The notes under the pieces were generated by a model that worked only from the letters and a program-made list of their open reading frames with translations, did no database searches and had not been told where the DNA came from. Made by a program: the position numbers and the translations under genes. 64,000 nt of DNA, taken from positions 32,001 to 96,000 of the IMG/VR virus record IMGVR_UViG_3300029288_000077. The stretch is one strand, 5' to 3'. The number at the start of each line of letters is the position of its first letter. Within the stretch, counting starts at the first letter, position 1. Below are positions 15,679 through 36,743 of the stretch, piece after piece. Origin of the DNA: a virus (Duplodnaviria > Caudoviricetes).

Positions 15679-15704
15679 TGAATAACATCATTGGATTTGG
15701 GTGG

Positions 15705-15732
15705 TTTACTGGTGTATAACAGGTAGTATAAT
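15705..15732 (+). promoter_or_regulatory. Sigma70-like promoter heading the tagged-protein cluster
   Basis: TTTACT-N16-TATAAT; inverted repeat GTAGTAT-A-ATACTAC overlaps the -10. Confidence 0.6.
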
Positions 15733-15752
15733 ACTACAAAGGAGTAGGTATA

Positions 15753-16037
15753 ATGAAACGAAGAGCACAAGAAGTTGAGCCTGATTTTTCTGATAGAGAG
15801 TACTGGGTGGCGGCCGTAGAGAATTTGCAGGATGCCTATGAACATGTGCAGGAGGCCGTCAGAAAGTTTGACGAAGCCAATGAAAACATGACTCACACTT
15901 CAGATCCTGAGGCCAATCCTGAATTTTATGCCCATGACATTAACGAAATCTTTTCCTATGACCGAGAGATACTATACAAGGCATTGACCATGCTGAGTGA
16001 GCTTCAGGGCAATATTGAGAAGATGTACATGGAGTAG
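15753..16037 (+). CDS. Acidic putative internal virion protein
   Basis: MKRRAQE tag; acidic. Confidence 0.55.
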   Translation: MKRRAQEVEPDFSDREYWVAAVENLQDAYEHVQEAVRKFDEANENMTHTSDPEANPEFYAHDINEIFSYDREILYKALTMLSELQGNIEKMYME

Positions 16038-16044
16038 GTTTTAC

Positions 16045-17277
16045 TTGTCGTATCTAATCAGAAAAGCTATACTTTGTTTACAGGCAAAGTATGTAACGCC
16101 TCGTCAAAGTGATATCGATAAATTTCGAGATGACTTTCTTGTGCTTATGAAAAATGTCAAGCTTTTGAGCCCAGACGACAAAGAGACTGCTGAAGAGTTC
16201 AAGCAAATAGCCAATCGTTATACTGTGCAACTGCGTGGTTACTTGCAATCGCTGTTGAAGGCGATGGAAGAAAAGAAAACCTCTTTTGATTTGAATCAAA
16301 AACACCCTAAATTCTATCCGTATGTTTCTCGTGTTTGGGCACAAGTGCCATTTTACGTGAAGCAGTCTAAAGTGGTGTGGAGTTTTTTGCATGAATTGCA
16401 AGATTTGTACTATGGAGACGCATTGTCATCTTGGGCTTCGCGTACCAAGCGCAAGGCGCGGGCCGCTTGGAAGTGGTTTGAAACTGTCCTTTCATTTATT
16501 GACGAAAGACGTACTTCTGGCGGCACAGAAGATGATTTGAAGATGCAAGTCTTAGAAGAGGAGCTGGTTAGTACAGCAGGTTTCGATGTGCAATTGGTTG
16601 GATATGAAGATACAGAGAGCCATCAGAAGTGGTTAGGTATACTGCGCTCGGCTTTGAGGGTGTTTAAAGAAAAAGCCAACAAGGTGGTGCCGTGGATAGT
16701 AGAGTATGCTCTTCCTTTCCGAGTTGAGTTTTCATTTGAAAGAGGGTCTTCTGCAGGTGCCTACGGCTATTCAGGTACATATGAATATGACCACATCAAT
16801 GTTTACCCATGGTCTTTTGGTGACGTAAATAAGGTGGTGCACACTTTAGCGCATGAAATGGGCCACCACATGTTTAGGTCGATGTCTGCTGAACACGTAA
16901 AAGAGTTTACGGAATTGATGAAAGGTAACGAAGAGTGGGATCTCATGGAGCTGGTGCTGTTGTATGACGCAAACGCAGAAGAGTCAGAACTTGCTTTTGA
17001 ACAGCGCATCAAGTCACAGTATCCGGACATCTATTACAAGTGGATGGCGGCTGCCAACAAATATGAAGGATACAACTTTCATTTCATCCAAAAAGTGGTG
17101 GAATACTTACAGGGTGGCGGAGATCCGAAGGTAAACATACCATCTAAGATAGTCACACCATATGGCACCAAAAATCCAGAAGAAGCTTTCTGTGAAACTG
17201 TAGGTATGTTGGTGGCTTATGGATCACGCACTGTAGATGAAGAAGTAAGAGAACTATTCAAAAAGCTGAAACTGTGA
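16045..17277 (+). CDS. Zincin-type metallopeptidase with KAI tag
   Basis: TLAHEMGHH and YGTKNPEEAFCE; TTG start after GGAG gives MSYLIRKAILCLQA. Confidence 0.7.
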   Translation: MSYLIRKAILCLQAKYVTPRQSDIDKFRDDFLVLMKNVKLLSPDDKETAEEFKQIANRYTVQLRGYLQSLLKAMEEKKTSFDLNQKHPKFYPYVSRVWAQVPFYVKQSKVVWSFLHELQDLYYGDALSSWASRTKRKARAAWKWFETVLSFIDERRTSGGTEDDLKMQVLEEELVSTAGFDVQLVGYEDTESHQKWLGILRSALRVFKEKANKVVPWIVEYALPFRVEFSFERGSSAGAYGYSGTYEYDHINVYPWSFGDVNKVVHTLAHEMGHHMFRSMSAEHVKEFTELMKGNEEWDLMELVLLYDANAEESELAFEQRIKSQYPDIYYKWMAAANKYEGYNFHFIQKVVEYLQGGGDPKVNIPSKIVTPYGTKNPEEAFCETVGMLVAYGSRTVDEEVRELFKKLKL

Positions 17278-17289
17278 AGGAGAAGGTTT

Positions 17290-17592
17290 ATGAACCCAAT
17301 ACAGTCCGCCATCAAGGCGCTGTCCGAAAGCAAACACATAGTACGTGGTATAGAAGTGGGTGATACATTAGTAGCAATCGATGATCATGTGGTGGGTGGT
17401 GGTCCTGGGCAGCCAGAGGTTTTTGTGTCTGCTGGTGAACATGTGCGTGTCAAAGAAATACACGATGCTTCAGTTACTGTAAAGTTGGTAGATCGCACAG
17501 AATTGGAAAAAGAGTGGGGCAAGTATGAAGTCAACCGCGTTGATTTAGATCTGTCTGATCTTGACCATTATGTGGATGCCAAGGTATACTAA
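17290..17592 (+). CDS. Putative internal virion protein (KAI tag)
   Basis: MNPIQSAIKALS. Confidence 0.55.
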   Translation: MNPIQSAIKALSESKHIVRGIEVGDTLVAIDDHVVGGGPGQPEVFVSAGEHVRVKEIHDASVTVKLVDRTELEKEWGKYEVNRVDLDLSDLDHYVDAKVY

Positions 17593-17868
17593 AAGGAGTA
17601 ATTCGTGCCAGAGCTAGATACACCCTTTACCGATGATAACCTTTACTCCAGGTATAGGAGTGAAGTCATTAGGATTATCAAAAACAGTGTCTTTCCGGTG
17701 CTTGAACAGTATTTAGAAGAGTTAGCTGAGGATTTGGCTGAAGACGGTGCAACAGAAGATTCAGAGTATGTGGAAGAACTGCTTACGAACAACAGGTATC
17801 AATTAACCAGGGAGTACAAGAAGATACTAAAAACGTTGTTAGACTTTCCTGGGTTTGGAGAATAACGG

Positions 17869-18579
17869 TTGAAACGTGTGGCACAGTCTCCTGCTCTTTT
17901 TGATGCAGACGCTCGCTTAGATCCTGCTGTGCGTGAAGTCCTGTTGCAAATAGCTCAAGACATCTTAGATGCTTTAAATGAAGAGGGCGTGCACGTACCC
18001 CCGAAATTCCTGGTGCTTACCGGATCCATGACCGGTTTTGACTACAAAGAGACATCAGACATAGACTTGCATATAGGCTACGATCCGTTAGATTTTGAAG
18101 ATCCTCAAGCCGTAAAGCTGCTGTTCCGTTACTATCAGAAAAGTTTCAATGCAGAGCCGTATGATTTACGAGATCACCCCATTGAGTTGTATTTTCAAGA
18201 CGTGAACGAAGAGCACGTGTCGCCTGGCGTATATGATTTGATCAAGGATGCCTGGGTTAAATGGCCGGAGTCTCCTTCGTATATTAATGAAGAGGCTGTA
18301 GAAGAGTTTTATAATGGCACCACATATCTCATAGACAACTTCATCGTCGTTTATGAGCAGCAAAAGGGCAGCATGACCATGAATGATAGGAAGCGCTTTC
18401 TTTCAGACGTAAAGGCGTTGAAAGACTTTATACGGGAAAAACGGTCAGAAGGTCTTCACTCTCCTGCGGGCGTGTATTCAGTACAAAATCTTGGATTCAA
18501 GCAGCTCCGTGAGCACTTAGACTTAGATAACTTGAATGCACTGGTGCATCGAGTGCAAGACGATATCTATGAGGCATGA
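17869..18579 (+). CDS. Pol-beta superfamily nucleotidyltransferase
   Basis: LTGS-x8-SDIDLHI, PIELYFQ, GVYDL; N-terminal MKRVAQ tag. Confidence 0.75.
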   Translation: MKRVAQSPALFDADARLDPAVREVLLQIAQDILDALNEEGVHVPPKFLVLTGSMTGFDYKETSDIDLHIGYDPLDFEDPQAVKLLFRYYQKSFNAEPYDLRDHPIELYFQDVNEEHVSPGVYDLIKDAWVKWPESPSYINEEAVEEFYNGTTYLIDNFIVVYEQQKGSMTMNDRKRFLSDVKALKDFIREKRSEGLHSPAGVYSVQNLGFKQLREHLDLDNLNALVHRVQDDIYEA

Positions 18580-19322
18580 TGTTTGTATCAGCCAAATTGC
18601 GTAATGAGTTGAGGTCCGTAAAGGACCTGCTTACCATGTCTAACGCTGACAAGGGTTTTGATCTGGCTGTGATGGATCCAAACATGTTTCTTACCTGGTA
18701 CAGAAAAAATGTTGGTGAAGCAAACTTTGAGGATGAACAGCAGTTCATTGAAAGTTTGTATGCAACGGATAAATCGGTGTTAGGTAACTATTTCGATGAT
18801 GGAGATGTGCGGTACAGTTTGCTTAATGATCCTGATGCACCACCTTTTTTGTTTATGGACTTTGAAGAAGCTGTCTTTAATAAATGGATGATTCATTTTA
18901 CGGATAGTGCGTATAATGTGGCTTTGAAAGGCTTTAAATACGGCACACCAAATTTGGAGAGTTTGCCCTATACGAGACATACTCCACAGAAATATAAAAC
19001 GGGTGGGTATAACTTTGCGTATGATTTGGATGATCTGCACTATGCTTTTACGGGTAAAGGTACTAAGTATGGAAAAGAAGCGGTAATGTTTCAAGCTACT
19101 GGTATAAAAGTATATCATCACGGTGATGAAGAGCCGCAGGTAATATTTTGGGGTGAAACCGCCAGGAATTTTGTACCAATCCTTGTCAATGGTGATACAG
19201 ACGATTGGGCTGTTGGAGAAGACAAAGAAGGTTTTCCGGTATACCATCACGAAAGTTTAGATAAGGTCGTGGATTGGGTGGTAGCCAATTTCAATCAATA
19301 CAAGGGAGTCTTAATAGTATGA
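18576..19322 (+). CDS. Hypothetical protein, putative internal virion protein
   Basis: 248-aa ORF inside the tagged cluster. Confidence 0.5.
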   Translation: MMFVSAKLRNELRSVKDLLTMSNADKGFDLAVMDPNMFLTWYRKNVGEANFEDEQQFIESLYATDKSVLGNYFDDGDVRYSLLNDPDAPPFLFMDFEEAVFNKWMIHFTDSAYNVALKGFKYGTPNLESLPYTRHTPQKYKTGGYNFAYDLDDLHYAFTGKGTKYGKEAVMFQATGIKVYHHGDEEPQVIFWGETARNFVPILVNGDTDDWAVGEDKEGFPVYHHESLDKVVDWVVANFNQYKGVLIV

Positions 19323-19579
19323 ATTCTGTACATCAAGCTATTCGAGTTTTGTCCCGTACTTTGTTTTGGGTAACTGATAAGTATGGATTTTTCACCACTG
19401 CAGTAGACAGCCTGGTAGCTGATCGAATCGTCAAGAGATTTGGACTTAATAAGGATCATGATTTTCACCACGCAGATCGTTACGAAGGTAAGGGCATGGA
19501 AGTCATGAAAGATAAAGGGAGTTGCCGCGTGACCGCCTACAATGAAAAAGCCAAGAGACTCATAGAGGATGTACTGTGA
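19319..19579 (+). CDS. Putative internal virion protein (KAI tag)
   Basis: MNSVHQAIRVLS; GGAG RBS. Confidence 0.55.
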   Translation: MNSVHQAIRVLSRTLFWVTDKYGFFTTAVDSLVADRIVKRFGLNKDHDFHHADRYEGKGMEVMKDKGSCRVTAYNEKAKRLIEDVL

Positions 19580-19636
19580 TGTAGGTGTTGTGCCCACATC
19601 GGGTATAATAAACGTAAACGATAAGAGGAGATTGTA

Positions 19637-20476
19637 ATGTACCAAGTGAGATCAATGATTCAGGGCATCTTTTCCCTTTCGCTCGAACGTGGCGTGCTGA
19701 ACATGCAACCGGGACATATGTATGACCTGGAATTATACTGTTCTAGGCAGTGGATAGCAGAAAACCACATATTGAATAATTTACTCAATCGTGGTATAAT
19801 AAAAGTGACTTATGATTCTCAAAAGGATCCACACCCTAAGCACAATCTCAAGAATGCGGGGAAGAAAGTACAACCCGTGTTTGTGAGAAAAGAACAGTTG
19901 GAACCAAAACCACAGCCAAAGAAAGTACCTGTGCCGCAGGGGCGCGGCAATGTGACTATCATTGAATACGTGGATGGGAAGCGTGTAGACAAGGTGGACC
20001 CAGGTGATGCGGAGTGTGATGCTGTGGTACCTGAGGATTGGAATACACCTCCTGGAGTGGTGAAGGCATCAGACCAGCCCGAGGTACCAGCAAAGCCAGA
20101 GGAAGTACCTCCGGAGGTCAAGGAAGTACCGAAGACTGATCCTGTACCAGAGGAAGTGAAGATAGGCACGCCTGCGTTCGAAGGTGCGTTGAAAGATTTG
20201 GCTGACGAGGTGATTAAGAAGCAAGCCAACAAAATCTTGAAGAAGAAGATGAAGGAAGAGGCTTGGGAAAAGTTAGAGGAAGCGCACAAGGCAATGGACG
20301 AAAAGAAAGTCGAAGAGCCGATAGTGACTAGTGGTCCTATAGATGAGACACCGGTATTGACTGAGAGTTACTTGAATGAACTTTCCACCAAGGATCTCAA
20401 GAAACTGGCCAAAGAGCGTGGTATGAAGAGCAACTTGAAGAAGCAGGAATTGGTACAATCACTGATAGGAAAGTAG
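19637..20476 (+). CDS. Protein with Pro/Glu-rich linker and C-terminal Rho_N/SAP-like domain
   Basis: PEEV repeats; YLNELSTKDLKKLAKERGMKSNLKKQELV. Confidence 0.6.
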   Translation: MYQVRSMIQGIFSLSLERGVLNMQPGHMYDLELYCSRQWIAENHILNNLLNRGIIKVTYDSQKDPHPKHNLKNAGKKVQPVFVRKEQLEPKPQPKKVPVPQGRGNVTIIEYVDGKRVDKVDPGDAECDAVVPEDWNTPPGVVKASDQPEVPAKPEEVPPEVKEVPKTDPVPEEVKIGTPAFEGALKDLADEVIKKQANKILKKKMKEEAWEKLEEAHKAMDEKKVEEPIVTSGPIDETPVLTESYLNELSTKDLKKLAKERGMKSNLKKQELVQSLIGK

Positions 20477-20709
20477 GTGTGACATGCCATTGGATCCTAA
20501 AACCAGGAAACTGTTGAGAAGCGTTGCTGAAGCGAGACGTGTGTTAGGTATCTTAGAAGAAGCTATCATGCACAATGAAATTACTGCTGGTGTATTAAAT
20601 CAGTACATGGATTTTGATGTGTTTGATAGAGAGGTTGATGGCATATTAGATGATGTTGCTGGGTGGATAAATGATGCATTTGAAGATATGTCTAGATCGG
20701 AGGGCTAAT

Positions 20710-21030
20710 ATGAAGTCTATAGACAAAGCGGTGCAAGTCATTGGACAAGAGCGCAGACACAGCATGCCTGCTAATATACCAAGTGGTTGGGACCAGGCTT
20801 GGCTGGCGGGGTTTTTGAAGGAAATAGAAGCGCACTATGATTCGGTGCAGGAGTTTCAAAGGAGCATAGATGCTGTGCTGCAAGAGTTAGACAGCAGTGA
20901 TGAAAGACTTGGTGTTGGAGCGTATTTGAAAAGTCTTATGGCTGCAGCCAGCAAGTTTGAGGATGCATTGGAAACTGCACACAATTTCTTGAACGTGGAT
21001 CCAGAACACACTGGTATACCTATAGACTGA
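20710..21030 (+). CDS. Putative internal virion protein (KAI tag)
   Basis: MKSIDKAVQVIG; GGAGG RBS. Confidence 0.55.
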   Translation: MKSIDKAVQVIGQERRHSMPANIPSGWDQAWLAGFLKEIEAHYDSVQEFQRSIDAVLQELDSSDERLGVGAYLKSLMAAASKFEDALETAHNFLNVDPEHTGIPID

Positions 21031-21038
21031 GGTGTGTT

Positions 21039-21287
21039 GTGGGTGCTTACCTTAACAAAGCAGTAAAGGTTTTGAGCGGTGTTCCTGCCATACTGTATTC
21101 TCACCCCGAGATTCGGGATTATTACAGAAAAAATGATGAAAAGGTGGTTACTGCTTGGGGAGCTTTATCTGGGCCTGCACACGGCATGCGCATTTATGTA
21201 CAAACAAGGAGCCCAGAACGCATAGATACCTGGAGTCATGAGAAAGGGTTTTGGCATATCGTAGACACACGTAAAGTGGATGTGTAG
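21039..21287 (+). CDS. Putative internal virion protein (KAI tag)
   Basis: MGAYLNKAVKVLSG. Confidence 0.55.
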   Translation: MGAYLNKAVKVLSGVPAILYSHPEIRDYYRKNDEKVVTAWGALSGPAHGMRIYVQTRSPERIDTWSHEKGFWHIVDTRKVDV

Positions 21288-21483
21288 TGTGGGTCTGCAT
21301 CGAGAGTTTGTGGTATCTGAACCATGTGGGCCTGGTGGATATGACTGTGCGTGCTGTTACGATGGTAGGTCCGGTAAGCGTGGTGCCAAGAAACACAAGC
21401 GTTGTAACCATGCGCGTAAAAGTGGTTTGAGACAAAGAGCAAAGCAAGAAACTGCACGAGATACACTTTGAGATCGGATCGAA

Positions 21484-22239
21484 ATGCTTTCTGAGTCACA
21501 AAAAGGTATCACCAAGGATGAGTTGATCCTCATCTATGAACTCATGTACAAGTGGGGTATGATACAATCTTATGAGCGTGAACATGGGTATTTACCAGAT
21601 CATGTGCTGCGATATGCCACGAAGATAGAGTCTGATCTTAGGTTTCACATAAAGCAAGGATTAGAAGCACTCATAGAAGCATGCGAGGCGTGGATAGAAT
21701 ATCACACATTTGACCAAGATGGTTGGTATGTGGACATTTTAGAAATTGATTCATTGAAAGAACAGATCAAACACGCTATGGCAACTTTGTTGATAGACAG
21801 GCACGATGTACTGAAGGTCATAAAAAAGCTGATACCTGTGTACTTAAATGGATATAATGAAAAAGACCTGTGGTCGATAGTGCATCAATTAGAAGATGAA
21901 ATAAAAGCTATTCATAAAGAGTTTTTTTATGAACTTTCTGAAGATGAGTATAAACACTGGATGAATCACCCAGTAGTTAAATCGATAGTGCACATGAAAA
22001 ATAGCTTACAAATACATACTGATGATTTAGGTGATTTAGTATCTGCTTTTAATAGAGGAGTGTCAACAGCACACCACCACGGTCAATTAGGTGAGTATAT
22101 TTTGAAAGACTCCGGTCCACAAATTTTTGATGATCTCTCTTCAGGCAAGTACACAGGACAGTGGGACAAAGACTTGGAAAAGATCTTAGGTAGGAAAGTG
22201 TCAACCTTAATCCTCGCTGCTATAAAGGAGCTGACCTGA
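21484..22239 (+). CDS. Hypothetical protein, paralog of 25699..26493, C-terminal tag
   Basis: Shared W..(Y/F)HTF, H..G...E.IL.D, DDL and LG.KV.T; ends LILAAIKELT. Confidence 0.65.
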   Translation: MLSESQKGITKDELILIYELMYKWGMIQSYEREHGYLPDHVLRYATKIESDLRFHIKQGLEALIEACEAWIEYHTFDQDGWYVDILEIDSLKEQIKHAMATLLIDRHDVLKVIKKLIPVYLNGYNEKDLWSIVHQLEDEIKAIHKEFFYELSEDEYKHWMNHPVVKSIVHMKNSLQIHTDDLGDLVSAFNRGVSTAHHHGQLGEYILKDSGPQIFDDLSSGKYTGQWDKDLEKILGRKVSTLILAAIKELT

Positions 22240-22479
22240 TCATGGACATCGATGTCGTTTTGTTTGAAAATCTGGGTAAAAATGGAGATCTAGAGAGCCT
22301 GGAGATAAATTATTGCATTGGAAAGAGAGAGGCTACGCTATATTTAGACAAAGATGAAGTCGATGGTTTATATCGATTGCAGCAGTGTGATAAAATAGAC
22401 GAGTTAGAAGATGTGCAAGTAAAAGATACTATTTATGAAGAAGTGTTGCACTACGTAGAAAACATGAAAGGGTAAAGAC

Positions 22480-22980
22480 ATGAACTGGTTGAAAAAAGCA
22501 GTGGGTGTATTGGGTGTGGATATGCACGATAAATTCAGACAGAACGTTGAAAGCGGTAAGTGGTTGATAATGAAAATACCACTCTACGCTCGTCGTTTTC
22601 TGGATAACAAACTTGGTAAATTATTTCCATATTATGCTAGTGAACGTCCACAACTGCCTTCTGCTGGAAAACCAGTTACATCGTGGACCCTACCAAGTGG
22701 TTCTAGTGTTCCGTGTCTGGTATTTTTGCCAGGAGACGAAGACATAGCTATGCAATACTTAGATGAGGCCAAGAAATCCCGAACCCAAGAAACCGAAGAG
22801 GGTGCGATTGGGGCAGTTGATAGGGCAATTGCTGTATGGGAACAAAATGGTCCCTTTTTACTAAAAGAGATAACTAATGCTGGGGACACAAAAATAGTAG
22901 CACAGGAACTGCGCAAAGCGGGGTTTGAAATGCGTGCTCTTCCAATGTATGGCAGCCCTAGAGTGTGGTATAAAAGATGA
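22480..22980 (+). CDS. Putative internal virion protein (KAI tag)
   Basis: MNWLKKAVGVLG. Confidence 0.6.
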   Translation: MNWLKKAVGVLGVDMHDKFRQNVESGKWLIMKIPLYARRFLDNKLGKLFPYYASERPQLPSAGKPVTSWTLPSGSSVPCLVFLPGDEDIAMQYLDEAKKSRTQETEEGAIGAVDRAIAVWEQNGPFLLKEITNAGDTKIVAQELRKAGFEMRALPMYGSPRVWYKR

Positions 22981-23072
22981 TTATCAAGGCGCAAGAAGTC
23001 CTTCCAGTCAACGTGGCTATCACTGATACTACTCAGTTGCAAGACGTGTTTGAGAGCAGTGTGGTAAAATAG
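22977..23072 (+). pseudogene. Truncated copy of the 5' end of gene 23456
   Basis: MIIKAQEVLPVNVAITDTTQLQDVFE then early stop; near-identical DNA to 23456-23533. Confidence 0.75.
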
Positions 23073-23174
23073 ATGAGTTAGAAGATGTGCAAGTAAAAGA
23101 TACTATTTATGAAGAAGTGTTGGCTTATACTGAAAACATGAAAGGTAAATTGACATGAACTGGTTGAAAAAAGC
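23055..23174 (+). repeat. Direct repeat of 22381-22499
   Basis: AGCAGTGTG...GATGTGCAAGTAAAAGATACTATTTATGAAGAAGTGTTG...ATGAACTGGTTGAAAAAAGC in both copies. Confidence 0.9.
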
Positions 23175-23454
23175 CATTGAAGAAATGGACAAATATGCTG
23201 ATTTGTTTGTGGTGTCATACGTTGTTAGAGATCCTGAGCGCGGAAATAGAAACAGTGGTGCTTACTTAGTGCGTGCCAAGTCTAAGCTGGACGCAATTCA
23301 AGTAGTAAAAAACATAGCAGAGGATTATTTTAGGGTTTCTGCCACACCGGCTGATAAATACTACCGAGATGATTATGATAGCGTAGAAGAGGCTCTAGAG
23401 GGCAAGAAATTACCTGCAATGAATAAATACCTTCTCCTGTACAGTGGTACATAA
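23155..23454 (+). CDS. Putative internal virion protein (KAI tag)
   Basis: MNWLKKAIEEM. Confidence 0.6.
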   Translation: MNWLKKAIEEMDKYADLFVVSYVVRDPERGNRNSGAYLVRAKSKLDAIQVVKNIAEDYFRVSATPADKYYRDDYDSVEEALEGKKLPAMNKYLLLYSGT

Positions 23455-23455
23455 A

Positions 23456-24928
23456 ATGAAGATTTCAGCGCAGGAAGTCCTTCCAGTCAATGTGGCTATC
23501 ACTGATGTCACTCAGTTGCAAGACGTGTTTGAGCTGTCTTTAGATGAAGCCATGAATTTAGCTATGTCCAATACCCGCAACGGTATCTTGAATACTGCGT
23601 GGTATGAAGGCATCTTGGCCAAGTTGGGTGAAATTGAACGCGATGCATTTACGCTAGGTTTGGCTTCGGCTGGTGTACAAGTCATCAACGAAGTAGAAGA
23701 GCTGCCCATACAAGCCAACGACGTAAAAGTGCAGGTCATAGACACTTCCACCAACAAAGTGATAGAAGAAACTACTGGTGACAACCAGGAAGAGCAAAAG
23801 TTCAAGGATTTGACAAATAAGTATCCTGACAAGAATAAGAATGTGGTGCAAGTCGTAGACAATACCACCAAAAAGGTGATGAAGTCTAACGCCAGCCTTG
23901 GGTATAATGCCCTTCAAGAAAAAATACTTATAGCTACTGACAAGCTGTCTGTGCTGAAGCGGGCTGGTAAGTCCGTGTCTTTAGAAGAAGTAGATGTCAT
24001 CCTGGGCGACCTACCTGGTTGGGCCGTGGAATGTGTACGTGATAGAGTAAAAGACGTAAAAAAAGACGTGCGCAAGAACAAGAGACAGGTCCATAAGACT
24101 GACAGAGAAGAGTCTGATTACCAGAAAGATGTGAGGAAGATCATGCAAAAGCCGAACATAAAAGACGTAAAAGGTGGCAGAGATGACGGGTTGAGCGCCG
24201 GTACCCGCAATGCCTTGATGATCATTGAGAATGATAAGAAATTTTTGGACCTGGCACTTAGTATCATTGCAGATGGTGGTTGGGAAAGTGAATTGTTCAA
24301 GGCTTTTGATGATGTGGTGGGCGGCAATTTACCAGCGTATGCGCGCAGTAGTGTGGTGGACTGGAAATTCGTAGCAGAGTATCTAAGGAAAGAATGCTCC
24401 ACATCTTTGTTTGAGGAGGATGCTTGTGATGTGAAGCGCATGGAACCAGGCAGGGACGAGTGGCACCACGGCGCTCTAGACGTAGATGCTGATCATCTTG
24501 AGCAGGAAAAGCGCGAGCTAGAAGATATAGTGATGAAGCGTCAAGATGAACTACCTAATTGGAAGAAACTGCTTGATAAAATCAAGAGAGCACTGTCTAT
24601 CTCTGAGGTACGTGAAGTGTGGGACGACGTAAAAGACACGGCTACTATAGCTGAAAGTGAGGCTTGTGACATGACTGCAAAGAGAGCGCAATTGGAAGAG
24701 GATCAAGAAGACTTTGATGAGGGTGAAGACTTGAAGGAGACTGACCCAGAGACTTGGATCGCTGAGAGTTACATCAATGGCAATTTGCAAGACATCAAGC
24801 ATGAGTTGAAGAGCATGCAGCCTATGGAAGCCATTTCATTGGCCATAGCTGCCTATTACTACCTGTTGGACATGGATCGCAAAGAGGCCGGTGCCTACTT
24901 GCGCTGGCTCATGAGGACAGGCGCTTGA
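23456..24928 (+). CDS. Modular acidic putative virion protein
   Basis: MKISAQEV tag; internal KSNAS and KRAQ sites. Confidence 0.6.
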   Translation: MKISAQEVLPVNVAITDVTQLQDVFELSLDEAMNLAMSNTRNGILNTAWYEGILAKLGEIERDAFTLGLASAGVQVINEVEELPIQANDVKVQVIDTSTNKVIEETTGDNQEEQKFKDLTNKYPDKNKNVVQVVDNTTKKVMKSNASLGYNALQEKILIATDKLSVLKRAGKSVSLEEVDVILGDLPGWAVECVRDRVKDVKKDVRKNKRQVHKTDREESDYQKDVRKIMQKPNIKDVKGGRDDGLSAGTRNALMIIENDKKFLDLALSIIADGGWESELFKAFDDVVGGNLPAYARSSVVDWKFVAEYLRKECSTSLFEEDACDVKRMEPGRDEWHHGALDVDADHLEQEKRELEDIVMKRQDELPNWKKLLDKIKRALSISEVREVWDDVKDTATIAESEACDMTAKRAQLEEDQEDFDEGEDLKETDPETWIAESYINGNLQDIKHELKSMQPMEAISLAIAAYYYLLDMDRKEAGAYLRWLMRTGA

Positions 24929-25404
24929 TAGTACGTGCTTCACAAGTCTTGGGTGCTGGCAAGAGGTTTTTGCTATATGCACATCTTACTTTGACAGGCA
25001 GAGCACCCAAAGTGTTGAAGGTACTTAGTGAAGAGCAACGTGATGGATATGTAATCAGAAAAGAGATGTGGGACACAGCCGGTCTTGTGCCAGAGCCCAT
25101 GGAGATGATTACGTGTTACACACCGTCTGGTGATTGGATAGGTGAGGAAAAGACAGCCAAATTTTTGGTAGAAGAGATGGGCATAGCTCCTGAACTGTCA
25201 GACCCAGATCATTCAGTGTGCAGCACAGGATTTTGTGCCAAAGAAAATAGATGGTACGGGTGGTCACACCGCGCCATCCACGGATTTGGTGTAGGTGATA
25301 AGTTTGAAGAGTGGTACCCAGAAGGCGGAGTTGAAGGTAAAAAGATAGAAACACTAGAAGAGGCAAGGGCTGCTGCTAAAGCCTTTGCTGAATCAGTAAG
25401 CTGA
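24925..25404 (+). CDS. Conserved phage protein (WYGWSHRA motif)
   Basis: STGFC..ENRWYGWSHRAIHGF; MIVRASQ tag. Confidence 0.6.
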   Translation: MIVRASQVLGAGKRFLLYAHLTLTGRAPKVLKVLSEEQRDGYVIRKEMWDTAGLVPEPMEMITCYTPSGDWIGEEKTAKFLVEEMGIAPELSDPDHSVCSTGFCAKENRWYGWSHRAIHGFGVGDKFEEWYPEGGVEGKKIETLEEARAAAKAFAESVS

Positions 25405-25698: not shown

Positions 25699-26493
25699 AT
25701 GATGGTATTGGGCGCATACGGTGATCCTATAAATCAACAACAGTTTGTTTCTTTGTGTGAGCGTGCAGACGAGTTGCATGCTAAGCTGGGTTACGCTTAT
25801 GTCATCAAAAGAAAGACTGGGTGGTTGTCAGATTCAGCTATGTCTTATGTTGGTAAGATGGAGCAAGAATTAGATTTAACATTAAACCAGATCTTTGACT
25901 TGGTGAAGGAATCATTAGATATGTGGGTGGATTTTCATACATTTGAAGGATCGTTAGAACACATACTGGGTGGTGTCGCGTCTGGATTAGATGCTGAATA
26001 CTGGTACAATCAATTTACTGAGTGGGTGGGGTCACAACCAGCACTGGACAGACTCATTTATTCAGCCACCAAGCACACAGAATCACATGCCACGTGGGCG
26101 TATGAATCTTTTGATCATGCCTTTAATAAAGATAAAAATACATTCATCAAGATTTGGAAGCGGGTATACCCGTATTTTATGAAAAGCTACCCAAGCCTAA
26201 ACAAAGCTTTGGTCAATACACAAAACGTGTTATCAGAAATGCAGTCTCCTCCCGCAGATTTGATGGATAAGGCTGCTTTATACCAAAAGTTTATGAATCT
26301 GGTACATTCTACTGGCCCAATGTTAGAGCACATACTTGAGGATGATAGCATGGCCAGGAAAGTGATGGATGATTTAGCACACAATCGTTATATAAACGAT
26401 ACTGAGTGGAAGAAGGAAGTAGAAAATAAGTTGGGGAGTAAAGTGGCTACTAGGTATCTGGTGTTGGCAATAAACGTGTTGGGTGAAACATGA
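25699..26493 (+). CDS. Hypothetical protein, paralog of 21484..22239, C-terminal tag
   Basis: Ends YLVLAINVLGET. Confidence 0.65.
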   Translation: MMVLGAYGDPINQQQFVSLCERADELHAKLGYAYVIKRKTGWLSDSAMSYVGKMEQELDLTLNQIFDLVKESLDMWVDFHTFEGSLEHILGGVASGLDAEYWYNQFTEWVGSQPALDRLIYSATKHTESHATWAYESFDHAFNKDKNTFIKIWKRVYPYFMKSYPSLNKALVNTQNVLSEMQSPPADLMDKAALYQKFMNLVHSTGPMLEHILEDDSMARKVMDDLAHNRYINDTEWKKEVENKLGSKVATRYLVLAINVLGET

Positions 26494-26975: not shown

Positions 26976-27096
26976 TTATACTACACTGTGCAAGATTGTA
27001 GTATAATCATACCTATAAAACTCGTTGGTTAATAGCCTCATCCTCCAACCCAGTACAATATAAGGCGCGTATAACCTTACCAAGAGGTAGGATTCT

Positions 27097-28368: not shown

Positions 28369-28372
28369 AGAC

Positions 28373-28909
28373 ATGAAGTCACTAGTAAAAGCAATAAGAG
28401 TGTTATCAGGGACACAAACACTAAAACAGTGGATTGGTAATACTACTTCTGAAAAATATAGTATCCCTGCTGGTGAAGCACCGTCTTCCGCGCCCAAAGA
28501 TCCGAAAGATGCTGCATATAAATTGATGACTAAAGATGAAATTTTAAAAACATTTGATGGAGATGCACAAGGCAACCTCGATTTGAATTACGATAGGTGG
28601 ATCGCTGCAGATGATTCTGCTAATGCACCCAGTGTCATATACCAAACTCAGGGCAGAGATAAAACCGGTGCTTTGAACAAGCGTGCTAGTAGAGACAGCA
28701 AAGAGTGGGAGAAGTGGGAGTTTTTGAAAGAAGTGATGGGTGTTGAAGCCCTGTTATATGAAGTGTTGATAGGTATGAGCAACAAAGAAGCTGAGGATAT
28801 GATTGAGTGGATAGCTCGTATGCATGACATCCACGATCCAATACTGGGTGATGAACCAGAAGAAGATGAGGCTGAGGAAGAGGAAGACACCGAAGACGAG
28901 GAAGAGTAA
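28373..28909 (+). CDS. Putative internal virion protein (KAI tag, acidic tail)
   Basis: MKSLVKAIRVLSG; internal NKRAS; poly-E/D tail. Confidence 0.6.
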   Translation: MKSLVKAIRVLSGTQTLKQWIGNTTSEKYSIPAGEAPSSAPKDPKDAAYKLMTKDEILKTFDGDAQGNLDLNYDRWIAADDSANAPSVIYQTQGRDKTGALNKRASRDSKEWEKWEFLKEVMGVEALLYEVLIGMSNKEAEDMIEWIARMHDIHDPILGDEPEEDEAEEEEDTEDEEE

Positions 28910-29670: not shown

Positions 29671-30309
29671 ATGAATTTTATAGCGAAAGCTGTTGATGTA
29701 TTAGCTGGTTCGAAAGAGAAGCAATTGATCAACAAAATTGTCAAGAAAATTGATGGTGAATTTGCCAGGTATCTGTGGTCTGATTTGTGGACTCACTTTG
29801 ATGAGGAACAAATAGAGGAGTATGCTGACAAATTTGGCATTAAATACACTGGTAACCCCTCTGAAACTATTGATATGATTAGTGGTAAAACTTCTGACGA
29901 TGAAATAAAACAAAACCTAAAGGAACTGTTGACTAACATCTATGATTTAGATATGTTGGTGGCACTGTGGGGAGATGTGGGTGGTGATGTGGAACAGTAT
30001 GAATCACAAACTGTGATAAACTTAAAAAAGGAACTGGAAGACATTGGTGTTCCTGTTAAAAATGTCTATTTAAGTGATGATGCAAGTGCAAGGTTTTCCA
30101 ATTCTTTTTACATAATAATAGATACTGTAGCTGATACAGAAACTTTATCAAAAATAAAAGATTTTGTGCGCAACTTAGATGGAAATGCAAAATTTAAGGA
30201 AATCGTGTACAACAATAAACCTGCTAAAGAGGGTGAATATTACCGTTTAGTGTGTGATATTAATAAGAGTGCAATGAAAAAATTGAAAATGCGAGGAGGT
30301 CTTCTATGA
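29671..30309 (+). CDS. Putative internal virion protein (KAI tag)
   Basis: MNFIAKAVDVLAG; GGAGG RBS. Confidence 0.6.
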   Translation: MNFIAKAVDVLAGSKEKQLINKIVKKIDGEFARYLWSDLWTHFDEEQIEEYADKFGIKYTGNPSETIDMISGKTSDDEIKQNLKELLTNIYDLDMLVALWGDVGGDVEQYESQTVINLKKELEDIGVPVKNVYLSDDASARFSNSFYIIIDTVADTETLSKIKDFVRNLDGNAKFKEIVYNNKPAKEGEYYRLVCDINKSAMKKLKMRGGLL

Positions 30310-30561
30310 AGCTGTATTACGATGTCATCTCGAAGATGTACTCTTTGGAGACTGAGCAGGGACCTGAATTCCTGGGTCCCTTTGCTCATACCCTGCTCAA
30401 GTTGAAGCAGGCTGGTTTGACTGAAGACCAGTCACGTGAAGCCGTGCTCAAAGCCATGTTTGGCTACGGTCGAGCGATTTGCTTAGACGCTGTTATAGCT
30501 GATAATTTAGTGGGTGGGTTGAAAGCCGTACATAATCATACGTACGGAAAGGACAAGGCTG

Positions 30562-31257
30562 ATGAATAACTATCTGTTCCGTGCAATCGCTCAGTTGAAG
30601 GAGTATGTAAGTCCAAGTGTAAAGACACAAGTACCTTTTACTATATCAGAAGAACATCCGCTACCAGTACAAGTGTTACCTAAGGATGAAGAATGCATAC
30701 TAAAATTTATAAATAAAGAAGAGTGCGAAGGTGAGTATGTTACGTCAAGAAGAGACAGCATAGGAACACTAGAATTGTTGGTTGATGGGTGGCACGTAGC
30801 ACAATGGTACCGTCGTAAGATACTTACTGTACCACCAGACACCGAATTAGAGGGTTATCAAAAGAAAGTGGTGGATTTTTTGAAGGAAGTAGGGGGACTA
30901 CGTGTAAAGGACTGGAGAAGCGTTAAAGAAGAAAGCCCCGGCCAGCAAATACCATATTATATGGGCATGCAGTTTGATAGATCGCTAAATAAACGCAGTG
31001 CACAGAACATAATGAACAGCATACTGCGCAATTTGCCGGATGGGTTTATGGTGTATAAGGGCAGAGTCGATTACGGACCGTGGGATGGAAAAGTATATAC
31101 TTTATACGATAAGATACTTGCTTCTGTTATTGGTGTACTTGTTCGTAAAGATAGTAAGCATAAAATAAAGGAATTTATGAATGCAGTTAACTCTATGGAT
31201 GGTGTAACTGAAGCATACTTACTTAGAGACATAGATCACAACATGCTTGATGTGTGA
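30562..31257 (+). CDS. Putative internal virion protein (tag variant)
   Basis: MNNYLFRAIAQLKEY, same leader type as 33723. Confidence 0.6.
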   Translation: MNNYLFRAIAQLKEYVSPSVKTQVPFTISEEHPLPVQVLPKDEECILKFINKEECEGEYVTSRRDSIGTLELLVDGWHVAQWYRRKILTVPPDTELEGYQKKVVDFLKEVGGLRVKDWRSVKEESPGQQIPYYMGMQFDRSLNKRSAQNIMNSILRNLPDGFMVYKGRVDYGPWDGKVYTLYDKILASVIGVLVRKDSKHKIKEFMNAVNSMDGVTEAYLLRDIDHNMLDV

Positions 31258-31852
31258 TTTATAATATGATAGCAGGTAATTTAATTGGGTGTTTCAAAGC
31301 AGTACACAATGAGACGTATGGAAAGGAGGAGAGTGATGAATGAGGCACTTGCACTAATAAGAAAGGTAATGTCACGTTACAGATCTTTCTTTGCGGGTGA
31401 ACCCGAAAGGGAATTGGCTGCTCAGGCAAATGATTATTTGGAAATTATACGTGCTGATTTTGAAGATATGGGTAAAGAGCAATTAATAAACAAAATCATG
31501 GAATTGTATGCTATTTATGATCCTGATTTCATTAAACAGCAAGTAAGAGAAATGATTGCTGACGTAAAGGGAGATATAAAATACGATCAATATGAGGAAA
31601 ATCAACGCAAAAAGAGAGACAGATTTCTGGCACCATGATTTTTCTTTCTTCCATATTGATTTCTAAGGACAAGCGAGTCATCTTTGATGCTCCTTGCAAT
31701 ATAGCTGCTGGAGTGCTGTTCAACCCTGTTTGTGAGTACTCTGGTTTGAAAGACTGTGCTGAGTGTTGTGAAAAGATGAAGAAGGATTGGTTATTGCAGA
31801 CGATAGTTTGTAGTAGGAAAGAGCTGTTTTATCAAGCATAAGGATAAAATAC

Positions 31853-33730
31853 GTGGCAGACAAGGATAAGAAAAAGCCCACCAACAGCAGCGCTATCATA
31901 GTTAAGGCCAGTGATTTTAGGGACAACCCTGACGAAGGCAAGATTGAAGGCCAAAAGGATATGGTTTATGGTCGATACCGAAGCATAGCCAGTGTCAATC
32001 GCCGTGGATCTTATACTGGCGCTCCCACTTCTACCTCGCAGCAATCCACTGCGATGGTGCCTATTTACTACGATTACCGGTTTTCTACACCAGACAAGTA
32101 CTACTTTCCCAAAGACCGGTTCAATGCCAACTCTACGTGGCGTGATATCTATCGACGCGACGCCACCATCGGTATCGCCACTGACATGTATTCGGAGTTG
32201 CCGTGGTCCGACTTTGATATAGAAGCTGTAGACGACCCTAAGATACAGCAGTGTTATGAAGATATGTTTACCGATTTGGCTTTGGCCCCACAAATGCCTT
32301 TGTTTTCAAAGGACTTTCTAATACACGGAGAGTTCGTAGGGCACTCCCTGTTCAATGAAACTAAGGGGTACTGGGACCGGATCATCTCCCACAACCCAGA
32401 TTATGTGAAAGTCATGGGTGTGGGTTTAGCTTCAGCACAGCCATTATGCTGGTTGCGTCCTACTCCTGACTTTGTGCGTCTTATGAACACTCCAGATCCT
32501 CGGGTACGCAAGTACTTGAATACTATCCCTGGTGAAGTGCTGCGCTCGTTTAAGATGGGCAAGGAAGTGTACCTTGAGCCCATGAATACTACGTACATGC
32601 CTCGCAAAAACACTTCACAAGAGGTGCGCGGTATATCTGTTTATACTCGTTTGTTCCGCATTAACATGTACGAAGATTTCGTGATGAATGCTTCACTGTC
32701 CATAGCCCAACGCAATGCGGCTCCATTGCGCTTGTTCAAGATGGGTGATGTCTCCAGACCTGATGGTTGGATGCCGGGTGCAGAAGACATACAAGCATTT
32801 ACCAATTTGTTGGCTACATCGGAGACAGATCCGTTTGCGGCGCTAATCACTCACCCGTACATCACCGTAGACTATGTGGGTGTAAGCGATAAAGTACTGC
32901 TGATTTCCCGAGAGTGGGAGTTTATTGAGCGTGTGAAGCTGCTAGCATTTGGTGTGTCAAAAGCATTTCTGGTCGGGGAGACATCTTTTGCATCGAGCGT
33001 AGCAGGTTTGCAGACTTTGCTTGAGCGCCTGGCTAACTTTAGGCTGATGTTTGAAGTCAATCTGATGCGTGACAAACTGGCTAAGCCAGTAGCCGAGATG
33101 AACGATTTTTATGAGCATTCCCAGGCGGAGCTGGACCATAGAGTGCGGGTCAAGAACAAAGCTGAGCGCAGGTTGGTGCTACCCACTTTCAAGTGGAAGA
33201 AAAGCCTTGAACCGACTCAAGATCAATCCTTGATGAACACTTGGCGCGACTACAAAGAGCGTGGTTTGATCTCTGATAAGACTTATTTGGCTGGTGGTGG
33301 TGTAGATATAGAGATTGAAAGACGCAATCTCATTGAAGAGATAGAGTACAAAGAGAAGATGATCGAGGAAGGCAAGATTCAGCCTCCTGGCATGGAAGGT
33401 GAAGAGGGCATGGGTGGTGGTCTTGGCGGTGAAGAGCCGGGGTTGCCTCCGCCTCCGGGCGCACACAGGATGCGTGGCGTTCATCCAAACTTTCCACGTC
33501 GATTGCCGTCTATGAGGCACTGGGCGAAAAAGTTGATGGATGACTACACCCCAGGAGATGAGTTAGATTCAAGTAGGATGAGTGTAGACCAAGCCATGGA
33601 TAGATTTAGCAAGTTGAGTCCAAGGGCTAGGAAACAGTTGCTGCACGAGATCAAAAACAAGGTGCCGTCACAAGAGCCATACATGCTGAATGGTGCCGTG
33701 CGGACGGCAAGGAAGAAGCCACATGAATAA
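31853..33730 (+). CDS. Portal protein
   Basis: 625 aa; YRRDATIGIATDMYSELPWSDF, RGISVYTR, VKLLAFGVSKAFLVGE; Gly/Pro/Glu-rich tail. Confidence 0.8.
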   Translation: MADKDKKKPTNSSAIIVKASDFRDNPDEGKIEGQKDMVYGRYRSIASVNRRGSYTGAPTSTSQQSTAMVPIYYDYRFSTPDKYYFPKDRFNANSTWRDIYRRDATIGIATDMYSELPWSDFDIEAVDDPKIQQCYEDMFTDLALAPQMPLFSKDFLIHGEFVGHSLFNETKGYWDRIISHNPDYVKVMGVGLASAQPLCWLRPTPDFVRLMNTPDPRVRKYLNTIPGEVLRSFKMGKEVYLEPMNTTYMPRKNTSQEVRGISVYTRLFRINMYEDFVMNASLSIAQRNAAPLRLFKMGDVSRPDGWMPGAEDIQAFTNLLATSETDPFAALITHPYITVDYVGVSDKVLLISREWEFIERVKLLAFGVSKAFLVGETSFASSVAGLQTLLERLANFRLMFEVNLMRDKLAKPVAEMNDFYEHSQAELDHRVRVKNKAERRLVLPTFKWKKSLEPTQDQSLMNTWRDYKERGLISDKTYLAGGGVDIEIERRNLIEEIEYKEKMIEEGKIQPPGMEGEEGMGGGLGGEEPGLPPPPGAHRMRGVHPNFPRRLPSMRHWAKKLMDDYTPGDELDSSRMSVDQAMDRFSKLSPRARKQLLHEIKNKVPSQEPYMLNGAVRTARKKPHE

Positions 33731-34166
33731 ATACCTTCTACGTGCAATAGCACAGTTGAAAAAGTATTTGGAACCGGAGGTTAGAACACTTCGGACCAGC
33801 CCCGCAATTGAAAAAATAGAAAGTCCCAGAAAGACCATTGAGTATTTTACAGACAGCATCAGTTCTGGGGAAGGAAGCCTAGATATGGACTCTTCTGAAT
33901 TTGAAGTGGTTTTTACCGGAGGGTGGTCAAAAGAAGACGATGAGATGATATCAAACATGATACAATCTTCTGGTATTGGTTGGGAAGAATATCACATAAC
34001 AAACGCTAGTACGATCTATGTTAATAACAGAAAGAATGCTAACAAAATATTTGAACTAGTTTATGAACAATATAAGGAACGGGGATATGACGAATTCATA
34101 TTGCAAACTGCTTCAGGAGTACTTATTAAAACCAAAGATTCTATCGGACCAAGACAAATAGAGTAA
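33723..34166 (+). CDS. Putative internal virion protein (tag variant)
   Basis: MNKYLLRAIAQLKKY. Confidence 0.6.
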   Translation: MNKYLLRAIAQLKKYLEPEVRTLRTSPAIEKIESPRKTIEYFTDSISSGEGSLDMDSSEFEVVFTGGWSKEDDEMISNMIQSSGIGWEEYHITNASTIYVNNRKNANKIFELVYEQYKERGYDEFILQTASGVLIKTKDSIGPRQIE

Positions 34167-34168
34167 AA

Positions 34169-35353
34169 ATGCTTTCTTATGATCAACACTTGGTGGCTGA
34201 AGTAGAGCGTCTGGCGGGCGGTGCTCAAATACACGATGTAAGGGACGTGATAGCTACTTACAAAAATTGGTTTTCCGTCCTAGAACAGGTACCCGATCAC
34301 GAAGAAGAGGCATTAAAGCGCATAAATGAGTATGAGGATTTATTGCGAGCGTACGTGCAAATGAGAAAATCAGGACAATATCCTAGCATTTACAAAATGA
34401 AGGAAAAGTTTCTATCAGAAGTGAAAGGTGCAATGAACATGAAAGGTGCAATAAATAAGGCGATTGAAGTATTGGCTGAGAAAACCAAAGTGTGGACGTG
34501 GGCCGATGATGATATGGAGTGGCGTAGTGTATCAATAAATGCATATGAAAACATACCAGCACGTGATGTACTGGCATTGGCTGACTCTGCTGGACAGGTA
34601 AATTACCCTAGCGTGTTTGTGAAAGAGAAAATAGTAAACGGCGCTCGCGTAATACGCTTTAAATTCGAGTATAATAATATTGGATTTACGGTAATTGGTG
34701 TACCTACGAGGAGCGAAGCAGAGAAGGCAGTAAAAGGTGCTGGGTGGGGTTATTATTTAGAAGGTTATGAATCTGAACAGGAAGCCGAAGAAAACAGAGA
34801 ACAAAGGAAAAAAGACATCAGTGAAAGTAAAATGCTTCGTACTCTTAGAACTACCAAAGACTGGGATTTTGTAGAGAGTTTGATTGACCAGTATGCAAAC
34901 AGTTTCGAAGCGTATAGTAACCTATCTTTTAATGAAAACATACCACAGGAAATACTACTTGAATGGGTTGATAGTGTAGATGATAGTAATCTTGGACCAG
35001 TATTGGGTATGCTCCCGTTTGATGAAGAAAGTTTTGAAGAACTAATAAATGAGTACAAAGATGATGGAAAAATATTAGCAAGAATCGCAAGCAATCCGTA
35101 TTTACCAAGTTATGTGGCATTAGAATTATTCAATAAATACTTCAATAGCCGAGATGTGGTATATGCATTGTTGAATGAGGAGCCTGCATTTACTTTGGAA
35201 CAATTTGAAAAGATAGTTAATAGATACAAGAATGACAAGTGGATGATGAATAGCGTGTATTTTACTTTAAAGGATCATTACAAGAAATCTCCGGAAAGAG
35301 ACGATATTATCGAAAGAACGGAAAAACTACTCAAAAAATGGTTCCGTATATGA
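34169..35353 (+). CDS. Fusion protein: internal KAI tag, domain shared with 35415, helical-repeat C-terminus
   Basis: INKAIEVLAEKTKVWTW matches IAKAIEVLAGETRVWNW; LARIASNPYLP. Confidence 0.6.
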   Translation: MLSYDQHLVAEVERLAGGAQIHDVRDVIATYKNWFSVLEQVPDHEEEALKRINEYEDLLRAYVQMRKSGQYPSIYKMKEKFLSEVKGAMNMKGAINKAIEVLAEKTKVWTWADDDMEWRSVSINAYENIPARDVLALADSAGQVNYPSVFVKEKIVNGARVIRFKFEYNNIGFTVIGVPTRSEAEKAVKGAGWGYYLEGYESEQEAEENREQRKKDISESKMLRTLRTTKDWDFVESLIDQYANSFEAYSNLSFNENIPQEILLEWVDSVDDSNLGPVLGMLPFDEESFEELINEYKDDGKILARIASNPYLPSYVALELFNKYFNSRDVVYALLNEEPAFTLEQFEKIVNRYKNDKWMMNSVYFTLKDHYKKSPERDDIIERTEKLLKKWFRI

Positions 35354-35414
35354 CCATCTACTGACGATTGAAAGGGTGCTTGCGTAGAGTGCATAGGAAG
35401 GGGTTGGCGGCAAA

Positions 35415-35816
35415 ATGAGTAACATTGCAAAAGCTATTGAAGTACTGGCTGGCGAGACCAGGGTGTGGAATTGGAATGAGATCGGGATGGAGTGGACATC
35501 AGCCTTGGTTGGTGTCTCTCCTACGGATTCTGGTGACAAGATTAGTATTATGTATGATGTAGCTATTGGTAATTTAGACGAGAGTTTGATTGATTGGAGC
35601 AATAAAGATGGAATGTATGGTTTAGAGAACACAGACTTCTGGGGTTTGCCTGTTAAAGATGATAAGGTTGGCAATTTTAGGGTGTTACACACTCCATGTC
35701 AAGATGGTCATGTAGATCAAGCATTGTTGGTAGTGGGGCCTAAATCTGCCAAAGAAGCACAACAGGCTGCTATGAAGGCAGGGTACGGTGAATGGTTTGA
35801 AGATTTGCAAGAATAG
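35415..35816 (+). CDS. Putative internal virion protein (KAI tag)
   Basis: MSNIAKAIEVLAG. Confidence 0.6.
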   Translation: MSNIAKAIEVLAGETRVWNWNEIGMEWTSALVGVSPTDSGDKISIMYDVAIGNLDESLIDWSNKDGMYGLENTDFWGLPVKDDKVGNFRVLHTPCQDGHVDQALLVVGPKSAKEAQQAAMKAGYGEWFEDLQE

Positions 35817-36323
35817 GCGTCCCTCTACTATTGAGGCAGAACGGTTGGCAGAAACATCTGATGACGGTGTGGCATACATAGTAACCTACAACGATAACTA
35901 TCCAAAGCGTGAATTGGACAGACGTGAAGTAAAACCAAGAAAGCAAATGCAGTCTTTAGAGGATGTGGGTAGGTCGTGGTTGCTGGATCCCGTGGTGCCT
36001 GAACACGGACAGTTTCCCAAAGAAAACAAGAGGAGGTCTTCAATGATAGTTAGAGCAAGGGACGTGTGGACTGATGAGGAAGTAGATATTTCTAGACTCA
36101 TTAAGTTTGCACAAGCTTGGGAACAAATGGGCAGCACAGTATCTAGACAGTTGATAGCTATCATGGAGAGTCCTGAGGCTGAGGTAAATCCACGTGCTAT
36201 CTCTGAAGCTAAAGACTTTATTGGTGGTTTTCACGAAGAGATAGATGCTGCAATCGCTGAGTTTGAAAATACCATGGAACATGCCAGCAGGCCCGGTGAT
36301 GATGAGGAATGAGGGCAGATGCT

Positions 36324-36743
36324 ATGAAAAAGATGATAGTAAAAGCTATTGACATGCTATCTGTAAATGGTAGTTCTCAAGAAATAACTGAAGAAGACAT
36401 AGCCAAGGTGGTTGGGTCCAAACCAGATCACTTTGAAACTGGGATGCATGATAATTCTGTGTATGCAGCTTATTTCAACACCTCTATGAAGCGTTCCCCT
36501 AAAGGAATTCATGCCGATGGTGAGTATGGTGAAATATTTATAGATAAAAATGCTCATGTTTATGTTGGTATCTTCAATCCAGAGTATGATGAGAGTGATG
36601 AATACGATGAAGACGAAGATCTTCCAGAACAGCAATTTAATTTTTTCCATGGTACATATCCTGGTACCACAGTACACAGTTTAGCTGAACTAGAAGAGGT
36701 TTGGAACAGCGACGATTGGCACCAGGGCGATCTCACATTGTGA
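36324..36743 (+). CDS. Putative internal virion protein (KAI tag)
   Basis: MKKMIVKAIDMLS; acidic. Confidence 0.55.
   Translation: MKKMIVKAIDMLSVNGSSQEITEEDIAKVVGSKPDHFETGMHDNSVYAAYFNTSMKRSPKGIHADGEYGEIFIDKNAHVYVGIFNPEYDESDEYDEDEDLPEQQFNFFHGTYPGTTVHSLAELEEVWNSDDWHQGDLTL

Follow-up and report, generated by a model that had tools for sequence, protein, structure and literature searches.

In phage T4, a short N-terminal capsid-targeting sequence (CTS) directs internal proteins to the capsid (PMC3012670, PMC5694885), and in phage P1 the first 30 residues of DarB direct loading of that protein into the head (PMC9024508). Here we describe a short shared peptide, hereafter the tag, in a 64,000-nucleotide stretch of viral DNA (Duplodnaviria; Caudoviricetes; IMG/VR record IMGVR_UViG_3300029288_000077), the window, which covers bases 32001-96000 of contig C2 in a 1.26-Mb assembly. 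About 16 plus-strand open reading frames (ORFs), lying between the terminase gene and a point just past the major capsid gene, open with this tag of 10-12 residues, and some 16-20 otherwise unrelated proteins encoded among the head genes carry it in all. Our best reading, to which we give a probability of about one in two, is that the tag is a capsid-targeting signal like the T4 CTS or that of P1 DarB. Contig C2 measures 183,765 bp, its ends overlap by 127 bp and one strand holds nearly all of its genes, which makes it the complete, circularly assembled 184-kb genome of an uncultured phage.

The closest parallel is the T4 CTS, carried by IPI-III, Alt, gp67 and gp68, which is likewise a short N-terminal peptide on diverse, fast-changing proteins, some of them anti-defence, and likewise coexists with a prohead protease, a scaffold core (the scaffold role being putative here) and hypervariable cargo loci (PMC3012670, PMC5694885). 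The present locus differs in having about 16-20 carriers instead of a handful, in their arrangement as scattered inserts between head genes, in belonging to a non-T4, phage-G-related lineage, and in that packaging is here a prediction. The proteases of T4, phiKZ and SPN3US cut after glutamate, whereas no fixed site of that type follows the tag here, and the T4 tag bears no resemblance to h-x-K-A-[IV]-x-V-L-[SAG] (h, hydrophobic). In P1 DarB, too, the cargo is anti-defence and an N-terminal stretch shorter than 30 residues suffices for head loading (PMC9024508), but that signal was defined on one protein, with stepwise loading via DarA and Hdf, while here one motif recurs on many. Inner-head or ejection proteins of SPN3US and phiKZ combine conserved N-termini with diverging bodies, and gp53 and gp54 of SPN3US have 15 identical N-terminal residues in common (PMC5694885). 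Their propeptides, in contrast to 10-12 residues on non-homologous bodies, mostly exceed 100 residues, are found on paralogues and end in A/S/G-x-E. Short, terminal, often amphipathic helices also dock varied cargo inside the shells of cellular compartments, namely as the cargo-loading peptides of encapsulins, which are usually C-terminal and whose shell has the HK97 fold, and as the encapsulation peptides of microcompartments. The capsid and scaffold proteins of Staphylococcus phage 80alpha share with ribosomal protein L27 a short N-terminal extension that is cleaved by Prp, an arrangement for which the host must supply both the protease and an extended L27.

The tag follows the consensus M-x(2-5)-h-x-[KRQS]-A-[IV]-x-[VM]-L-[SAG], and its basic residue falls on position 4-7 of the protein. 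All 18 peptides quoted in the original prediction, which had proposed a tag on about 20 mostly unrelated proteins, were recovered at their coordinates, 14 of them behind a Shine-Dalgarno-like sequence and a start codon (gene starts are our own calls from ribosome-binding sites). When a position-specific scoring matrix was run over the six frames of the whole assembly at a threshold of at least 18 bits, 16 matches were obtained in C2, all of them in the part of the window from 16 to 56 kb and on the coding (plus) strand; the other contigs gave a single match in 1.3 million positions. Since the matrix was built from the hits themselves, each copy was rescored with itself left out, whereupon ten were classed as strong (10-24 bits; 21039, 22480, 28373, 29671, 30562, 33723, 34439, 35415, 36324 and 54980/55554) and six as divergent (16045, 17290, 19319, 20710, 23155 and, in part, 54980), besides four or five weak variants. 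Copies had been predicted outside the main cluster as well, and those at 54980 (in part divergent) and 55554 proved strong, those at 807 and 2139 only weak variants; a degenerate member at 24925, a weak one at 1386 and a C-terminal look-alike ending the gene 25699-26493 were added. One generalised pattern was enriched 20-fold at ORF residues 3-9 over internal positions (Fisher p 3.9e-9), and the same pattern was not enriched at ORF N-termini in contig C1 of the host bin. The predicted amphipathic helix was borne out, the mean hydrophobic moment being 0.56 in tags and 0.40 in untagged neighbours (p 2.6e-4).

Behind the tag, the bodies had no relatedness by BLASTP, as foreseen, and 13 tagged proteins had no match in Pfam or PHROGs. 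Their description as mostly acidic holds loosely, the isoelectric point being 5.0 or lower in only 11 of 18 bodies, near neutral in three and basic in four. The invariant alanine is written with all four of its codons (GCA, GCT, GCG, GCC), the leucine with TTG, CTG, TTA or CTA, and the final serine with both TCN and AGC. This variety of codons, together with the N-terminal position and the amphipathicity, means that selection acts on the tag as a peptide and not as DNA.

The tag is also a portable N-terminal module, as is seen where it precedes a protein known without it. The product of ORF 24925-25404 (coordinates are of the window unless otherwise said, and those of the tagged genes and head landmarks are on the plus strand) matches the Tad6 family of Thoeris inhibitors (PF25188) from residue 38 (38-159; E 3.9e-39, 134.5 bits against a curated cut-off of 27), and most of 218 Tad6 homologues begin at the domain itself. 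Here the domain follows an N-terminal extension of about 30 residues that opens with a degenerate tag, behind a TTG start, preceded by a ribosome-binding site, that shares bases with the stop codon of the gene before it. An AlphaFold2 model from a 60-sequence alignment reached a pLDDT (predicted local distance difference test) of 88 overall and above 90 over residues 28-159, with residues 1-24 forming a separate helix of low confidence; this confident predicted fold and the score place the protein in the Tad6 family, so that at least one carrier belongs to an anti-defence family, in line with the predicted cargo of variable effectors. The closest Tad6 homologues bear extensions of 30-50 residues that open with an amphipathic segment, and P0102, P0103 and P0109 are among the homologues extended at the N-terminus. 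Tad6 blocks ThsB, the cytoplasmic sensor of type I Thoeris (PMC13728456). The gene lies in the late head module, translationally coupled to the conserved acidic protein upstream; no TIR_2 match was found in the assembly or bin, so that the bin may not be the host or may lack Thoeris.

In the gene 20710-21030 the tag is an 18-residue extension on a small family whose homologues (7592-7864 of the related phage L017; P0221, P0223 and P0225 of the protein library) lack the tag and begin where it ends; an exhaustive search returned seven proteins besides the query, of which three are small homologues of full length, and a word-based search only the protein itself. A duplicated slot (22381-23533) holds two tagged genes (22480-22980 and 23155-23454) with bodies unrelated by BLASTP, each flanked on the left by a copy of the upstream gene's 3' end with the same first seven tag codons (90% identical; repeat D1) and on the right by a copy of the downstream gene's start (84% identical; repeat D3). 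Within it, a small chimeric ORF (22965-23154) consists of about 26 codons from the start of gene 23456 and a copy of the 3' end of gene 22242. Further downstream, a conserved 112-residue gene (54641-54979) has lost its stop and reads in frame into the tagged unit 54980-55486, while its L017 homologue ends after 113 residues.

Carriers are confined to the neighbourhood of the head genes, among which a protease, a scaffold-like protein and the capsid protein are found. From the left, the landmarks of this module are the large terminase (13762-15678; phrog_17415, E 4.7e-65), the portal protein (31853-33730; phrog_16240, E 1.2e-79), the head maturation protease (49604-50464; phrog_18299, E 5.2e-30; 51% identical in relatives), an acidic, helical protein conserved in relatives from residue ~140 (50535-51938), which composition and position suggest to be scaffold-like, and the major head protein (52710-53843; phrog_2522, E 5e-53), whose N-terminal ~45 residues (52710-52850) are conserved across relatives in the alignment. 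Conserved genes were defined against 24 related viral contigs, which are fragments 50-85% complete with portals 40-58% identical; the closest portals, P0002 and P0003 (62-67% identical), are on contigs outside this comparison. By comparison with these relatives, the tagged genes are insertions peculiar to this lineage, placed between head genes that are conserved, and the interval from terminase to portal measures 16 kb instead of about 6 kb. Insertion and tag do not coincide throughout: between a PD-(D/E)XK nuclease gene (37430-38362) and the head protease, which lie less than 2 kb apart in relatives, is an 11-kb insert of about 40 small genes (38.4-49.6 kb) in which, as had been reported for 37-49 kb, no tag occurs. 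The tag thus does not mark insertion as such, nor do genes of this module start with it as a rule.

Only one conserved protein has an N-terminus related to the tag, a large acidic head-module protein (23456-24928) whose first 80 residues match the starts of proteins of 1045-1377 residues in relatives. A duplicated fragment at 22977 is nearer to the tag than the 23456 start is, and a graded series runs from that start through 22977 to the tags of MIVKAI type, so that the tag, to judge from these sequences, may have been derived from the N-terminus of this core protein.

Among the phages compared, only one other carries this motif. In a 205-kb contig with 56% GC (guanine plus cytosine), a portal 40% identical and a capsid protein 43% identical, six N-terminal matches were found against 15 internal ones (p 1e-4), and inspection by eye showed some ten ORFs, next to the genes for terminase, portal and capsid, that open with h-x-[RQN]-A-[LI]-x-L-L-[AGS], on bodies unrelated to those tagged here. 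Four long relatives (fragments of 91-145 kb, 50-79% complete, portals 52-56% identical) showed no N-terminal enrichment.

If the tag is a capsid address, its amphipathic helix of about three turns, with a small residue at the end, would attach accessory proteins to some conserved component of the prohead during assembly, be it scaffold core, portal or inner shell; the tagged proteins would be enclosed in the head and later leave with the DNA, and the tag would have spread to new genes through cassette exchange at gene boundaries. Among the cargo would be the Tad6-type inhibitor, the putative zinc peptidase, the DUF5661 protein and a large number of ORFans. We infer the prohead docking, any trimming by the protease and the delivery to the host. 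Glutamate follows within five residues of nine of the 16 tags, where about six would be expected by chance. Several observations weigh against this reading. No cleavage motif is conserved after the 16 tags, and they do not share the S-A-x-E-R of the capsid protein; the original prediction of an addressing system is supported in part, as regards a portable N-terminal module that is under selection as a peptide and sits on unrelated accessory proteins among the head genes, while entry into the capsid, cleavage of the tag and injection are presumed. The head protease itself has no Pfam match and no sequence relative in the Protein Data Bank (PDB). Six of the 16 tags drop to weak values when scored with themselves left out, one look-alike is C-terminal, and two tags are internal to longer ORFs, each behind an in-frame ATG with its own ribosome-binding site (ATG 34439 in ORF 34169-35353 and ATG 54980 in ORF 54641-55486). 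Since the tag is missing from four relatives, the lineage as a whole has no obvious need of a common receptor, and Tad6 might do its work unpackaged, in the cytoplasm late in infection.

The latter points are shared by the most probable of the alternatives, itself unlikely, in which the tag docks to some other common late partner (for instance a chaperone, a regulator or a component of tail or neck), and the proteins act in the cytoplasm. Portability and conservation fit any common binding partner, the Tad6 target ThsB is cytoplasmic, and the four untagged relatives have the same head genes; but in each of two distant phages the tagged genes are closely grouped among those for terminase, portal and capsid, and a conserved protein of the head module begins with a stretch similar to the tag. 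Nor did a comparison of gene content yield a convincing partner specific to tag-bearing phages, only two genes being common to the 205-kb phage and missing from the four untagged relatives, and neither being a convincing receptor. One of the two (13247-13666, 139 residues) is situated just upstream of the terminase; its C-terminus is like the transcription regulator phrog_36225 and its residues 11-24 are tag-like.

Decidedly less probable is that the shared 5' end is a by-product of cassette spread, serving as recombination homology or as a favoured translation-start context with little function as a peptide. The duplicated flanks do take in the first seven codons, sub-families of the tag have upstream DNA in common (repeats D2 and D6), and a TnpB gene adjoins two tagged genes; against this, codons are scrambled across copies while residues are kept, the motif persists on other genes in a phage of 56% GC, and the roughly 40 other genes inserted at 38-49 kb go untagged. 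Still less probable is a role of the tag as leader for a processing or modifying enzyme, which could be the HExxH peptidase that itself bears a tag (16045), the head maturation protease or one of the enzymes from the phage's glycosylation island: a putative zinc peptidase does come first after the terminase, with an unrelated one in the same place in phage G, but the sole radical-SAM gene on the contig and the tags are separated by more than 65 kb, and the tag ends in serine, alanine or glycine, so that there is no fixed acceptor. In addition, the host bin yielded no Prp protease, and its L27 is not extended at the N-terminus. Least probable of all, by a narrow margin, is an in-plane membrane-binding helix that brings proteins to the inner membrane. 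In its favour, the tag is short and amphipathic by its hydrophobic moment, and some copies resemble membrane-targeting helices of MinD or FtsA type; against it, the hydrophobic face is small, the polar face is neutral or acidic in many copies (e.g., the KAIEVLAGE type) and most bodies are acidic and soluble-looking.

Other candidates were rejected. A DNA- or RNA-level element is ruled out by codon diversity, and a single diverged paralogue family by the presence of the tag before Tad6 and DUF5661 domains and by the homologues without it. Sec, Tat or lipoprotein signal peptides do not fit a tag in which hydrophobic and charged residues alternate over about ten positions, with no uninterrupted hydrophobic core of about ten or more residues, lipobox cysteine or twin arginine occurring consistently. 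Prp/L27 mimicry is ruled out, as the bin has no PF04327 match and its L27 starts directly at the conserved N-terminus.

Returning to the capsid-address reading, shared starts of other sequence were seen elsewhere. In the metagenomic phage L042 (JFJP01036948.1; same portal family), at least seven ORFs after the portal (7800-20400) have another start, x-[IVL]-S-L-S-A, one of them a 366-residue Tad6 fusion. In phage G (L122, NC_023719.1; 4700-36300), about nine of 49 head-region genes (gp5, 9, 10, 12, 13, 17, 20, 38 and 53) begin, by eye, with [KST]-R-[LI]-[IKV]-[KS]. Beside another Tad6 gene in L043, three ORFs (10458, 18875 and 19162) open with x-Q/K-R-[LI]-D-E-A-[LI]. Tentatively, and at clearly less than even chances, we suggest that throughout a broad phage-G-like portal/capsid lineage each phage has its own short N-terminal label (KAIxVLS, x-VSLSA and KRLIKK types) with which it fills the capsid with interchangeable sets of counter-defence effectors, Tad6 among them, to be co-injected, so that the injected proteome could be read from sequence alone. 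Because phage G is cultured and shows a comparable pattern, the idea is testable. Should the tag act as a capsid address, it would identify at a stroke the proteins that this large uncultured phage probably injects, some 16-20 in number and one of them from a known anti-Thoeris family; cargo sets would then grow by fusing a borrowed N-terminus of a core head protein to new genes and by swapping cassettes, and the tag would offer a handle for finding new counter-defence proteins and a candidate packaging signal for protein delivery by phage capsids.

The remaining carriers are varied. At the far left, 807-1385 has a weak variant and is a doubtful member, and 2139-2429 has a weak variant within a 22-residue extension before a DUF5661 domain (PF18905, E 7.7e-15, residues 23-94). 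First after the terminase, 16045-17277 combines a divergent tag with a 410-residue putative zinc peptidase (HEMGH at residue 270; a weak Pfam match to Peptidase_Mx1 and look-alikes in the ESM Atlas), which has no sequence relative in the PDB and for which a single-sequence AlphaFold2 model was unusable (pLDDT 38); in phage G, the gene in this place encodes an M16 zinc peptidase unrelated to it. Divergent tags also open a 100-residue ORFan (17290-17592) and a basic one of 86 residues (19319-19579), and a strong tag behind a GTG start opens an 82-residue ORFan (21039-21287). The protein of 264 residues encoded at 25699-26493 has its tag-like end at the C-terminus (18 bits). Strong tags are borne by acidic ORFans of 178 residues (28373-28909), 212 residues (29671-30309; no usable match in the ESM Atlas), 133 residues (35415-35816) and, in the MIVKAI subtype, 139 residues (36324-36743). 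The RAIAQLK subtype brackets the portal, with a 231-residue ORFan just upstream (30562-31257) and one of 147 residues just downstream (33723-34166). The strong tag at the internal ATG of 34439-35353 suggests a nested start or a fusion, and the likeness between this protein and that at 35415 extends about 15 residues beyond the tag. The last carrier is a 137-residue ORFan (55554-55967) with a strong tag at ATG 55563, which adjoins TnpB (IS605 OrfB; 56003-57241), the latter lying directly 3' of two tagged genes.

As to the phage itself, Megablast against phage records and a portal-profile scan of genome contigs gave no hits, and portal similarity places an uncultured reactor virus nearest (37%), followed by phage G and the Erwinia jumbo phages. 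Near residue 46 of the major head protein, the conserved S-A-x-E-R may be where maturation cleavage takes place and could reflect what the head protease recognises. In relatives, the conserved genes on either side of the TnpB slot are adjacent, and TnpB may be an insertion vehicle. Many of the related portals, such as P0003, P0025 and P0034, contain inteins or homing-endonuclease insertions (PF14528, PF14890, PF05203).

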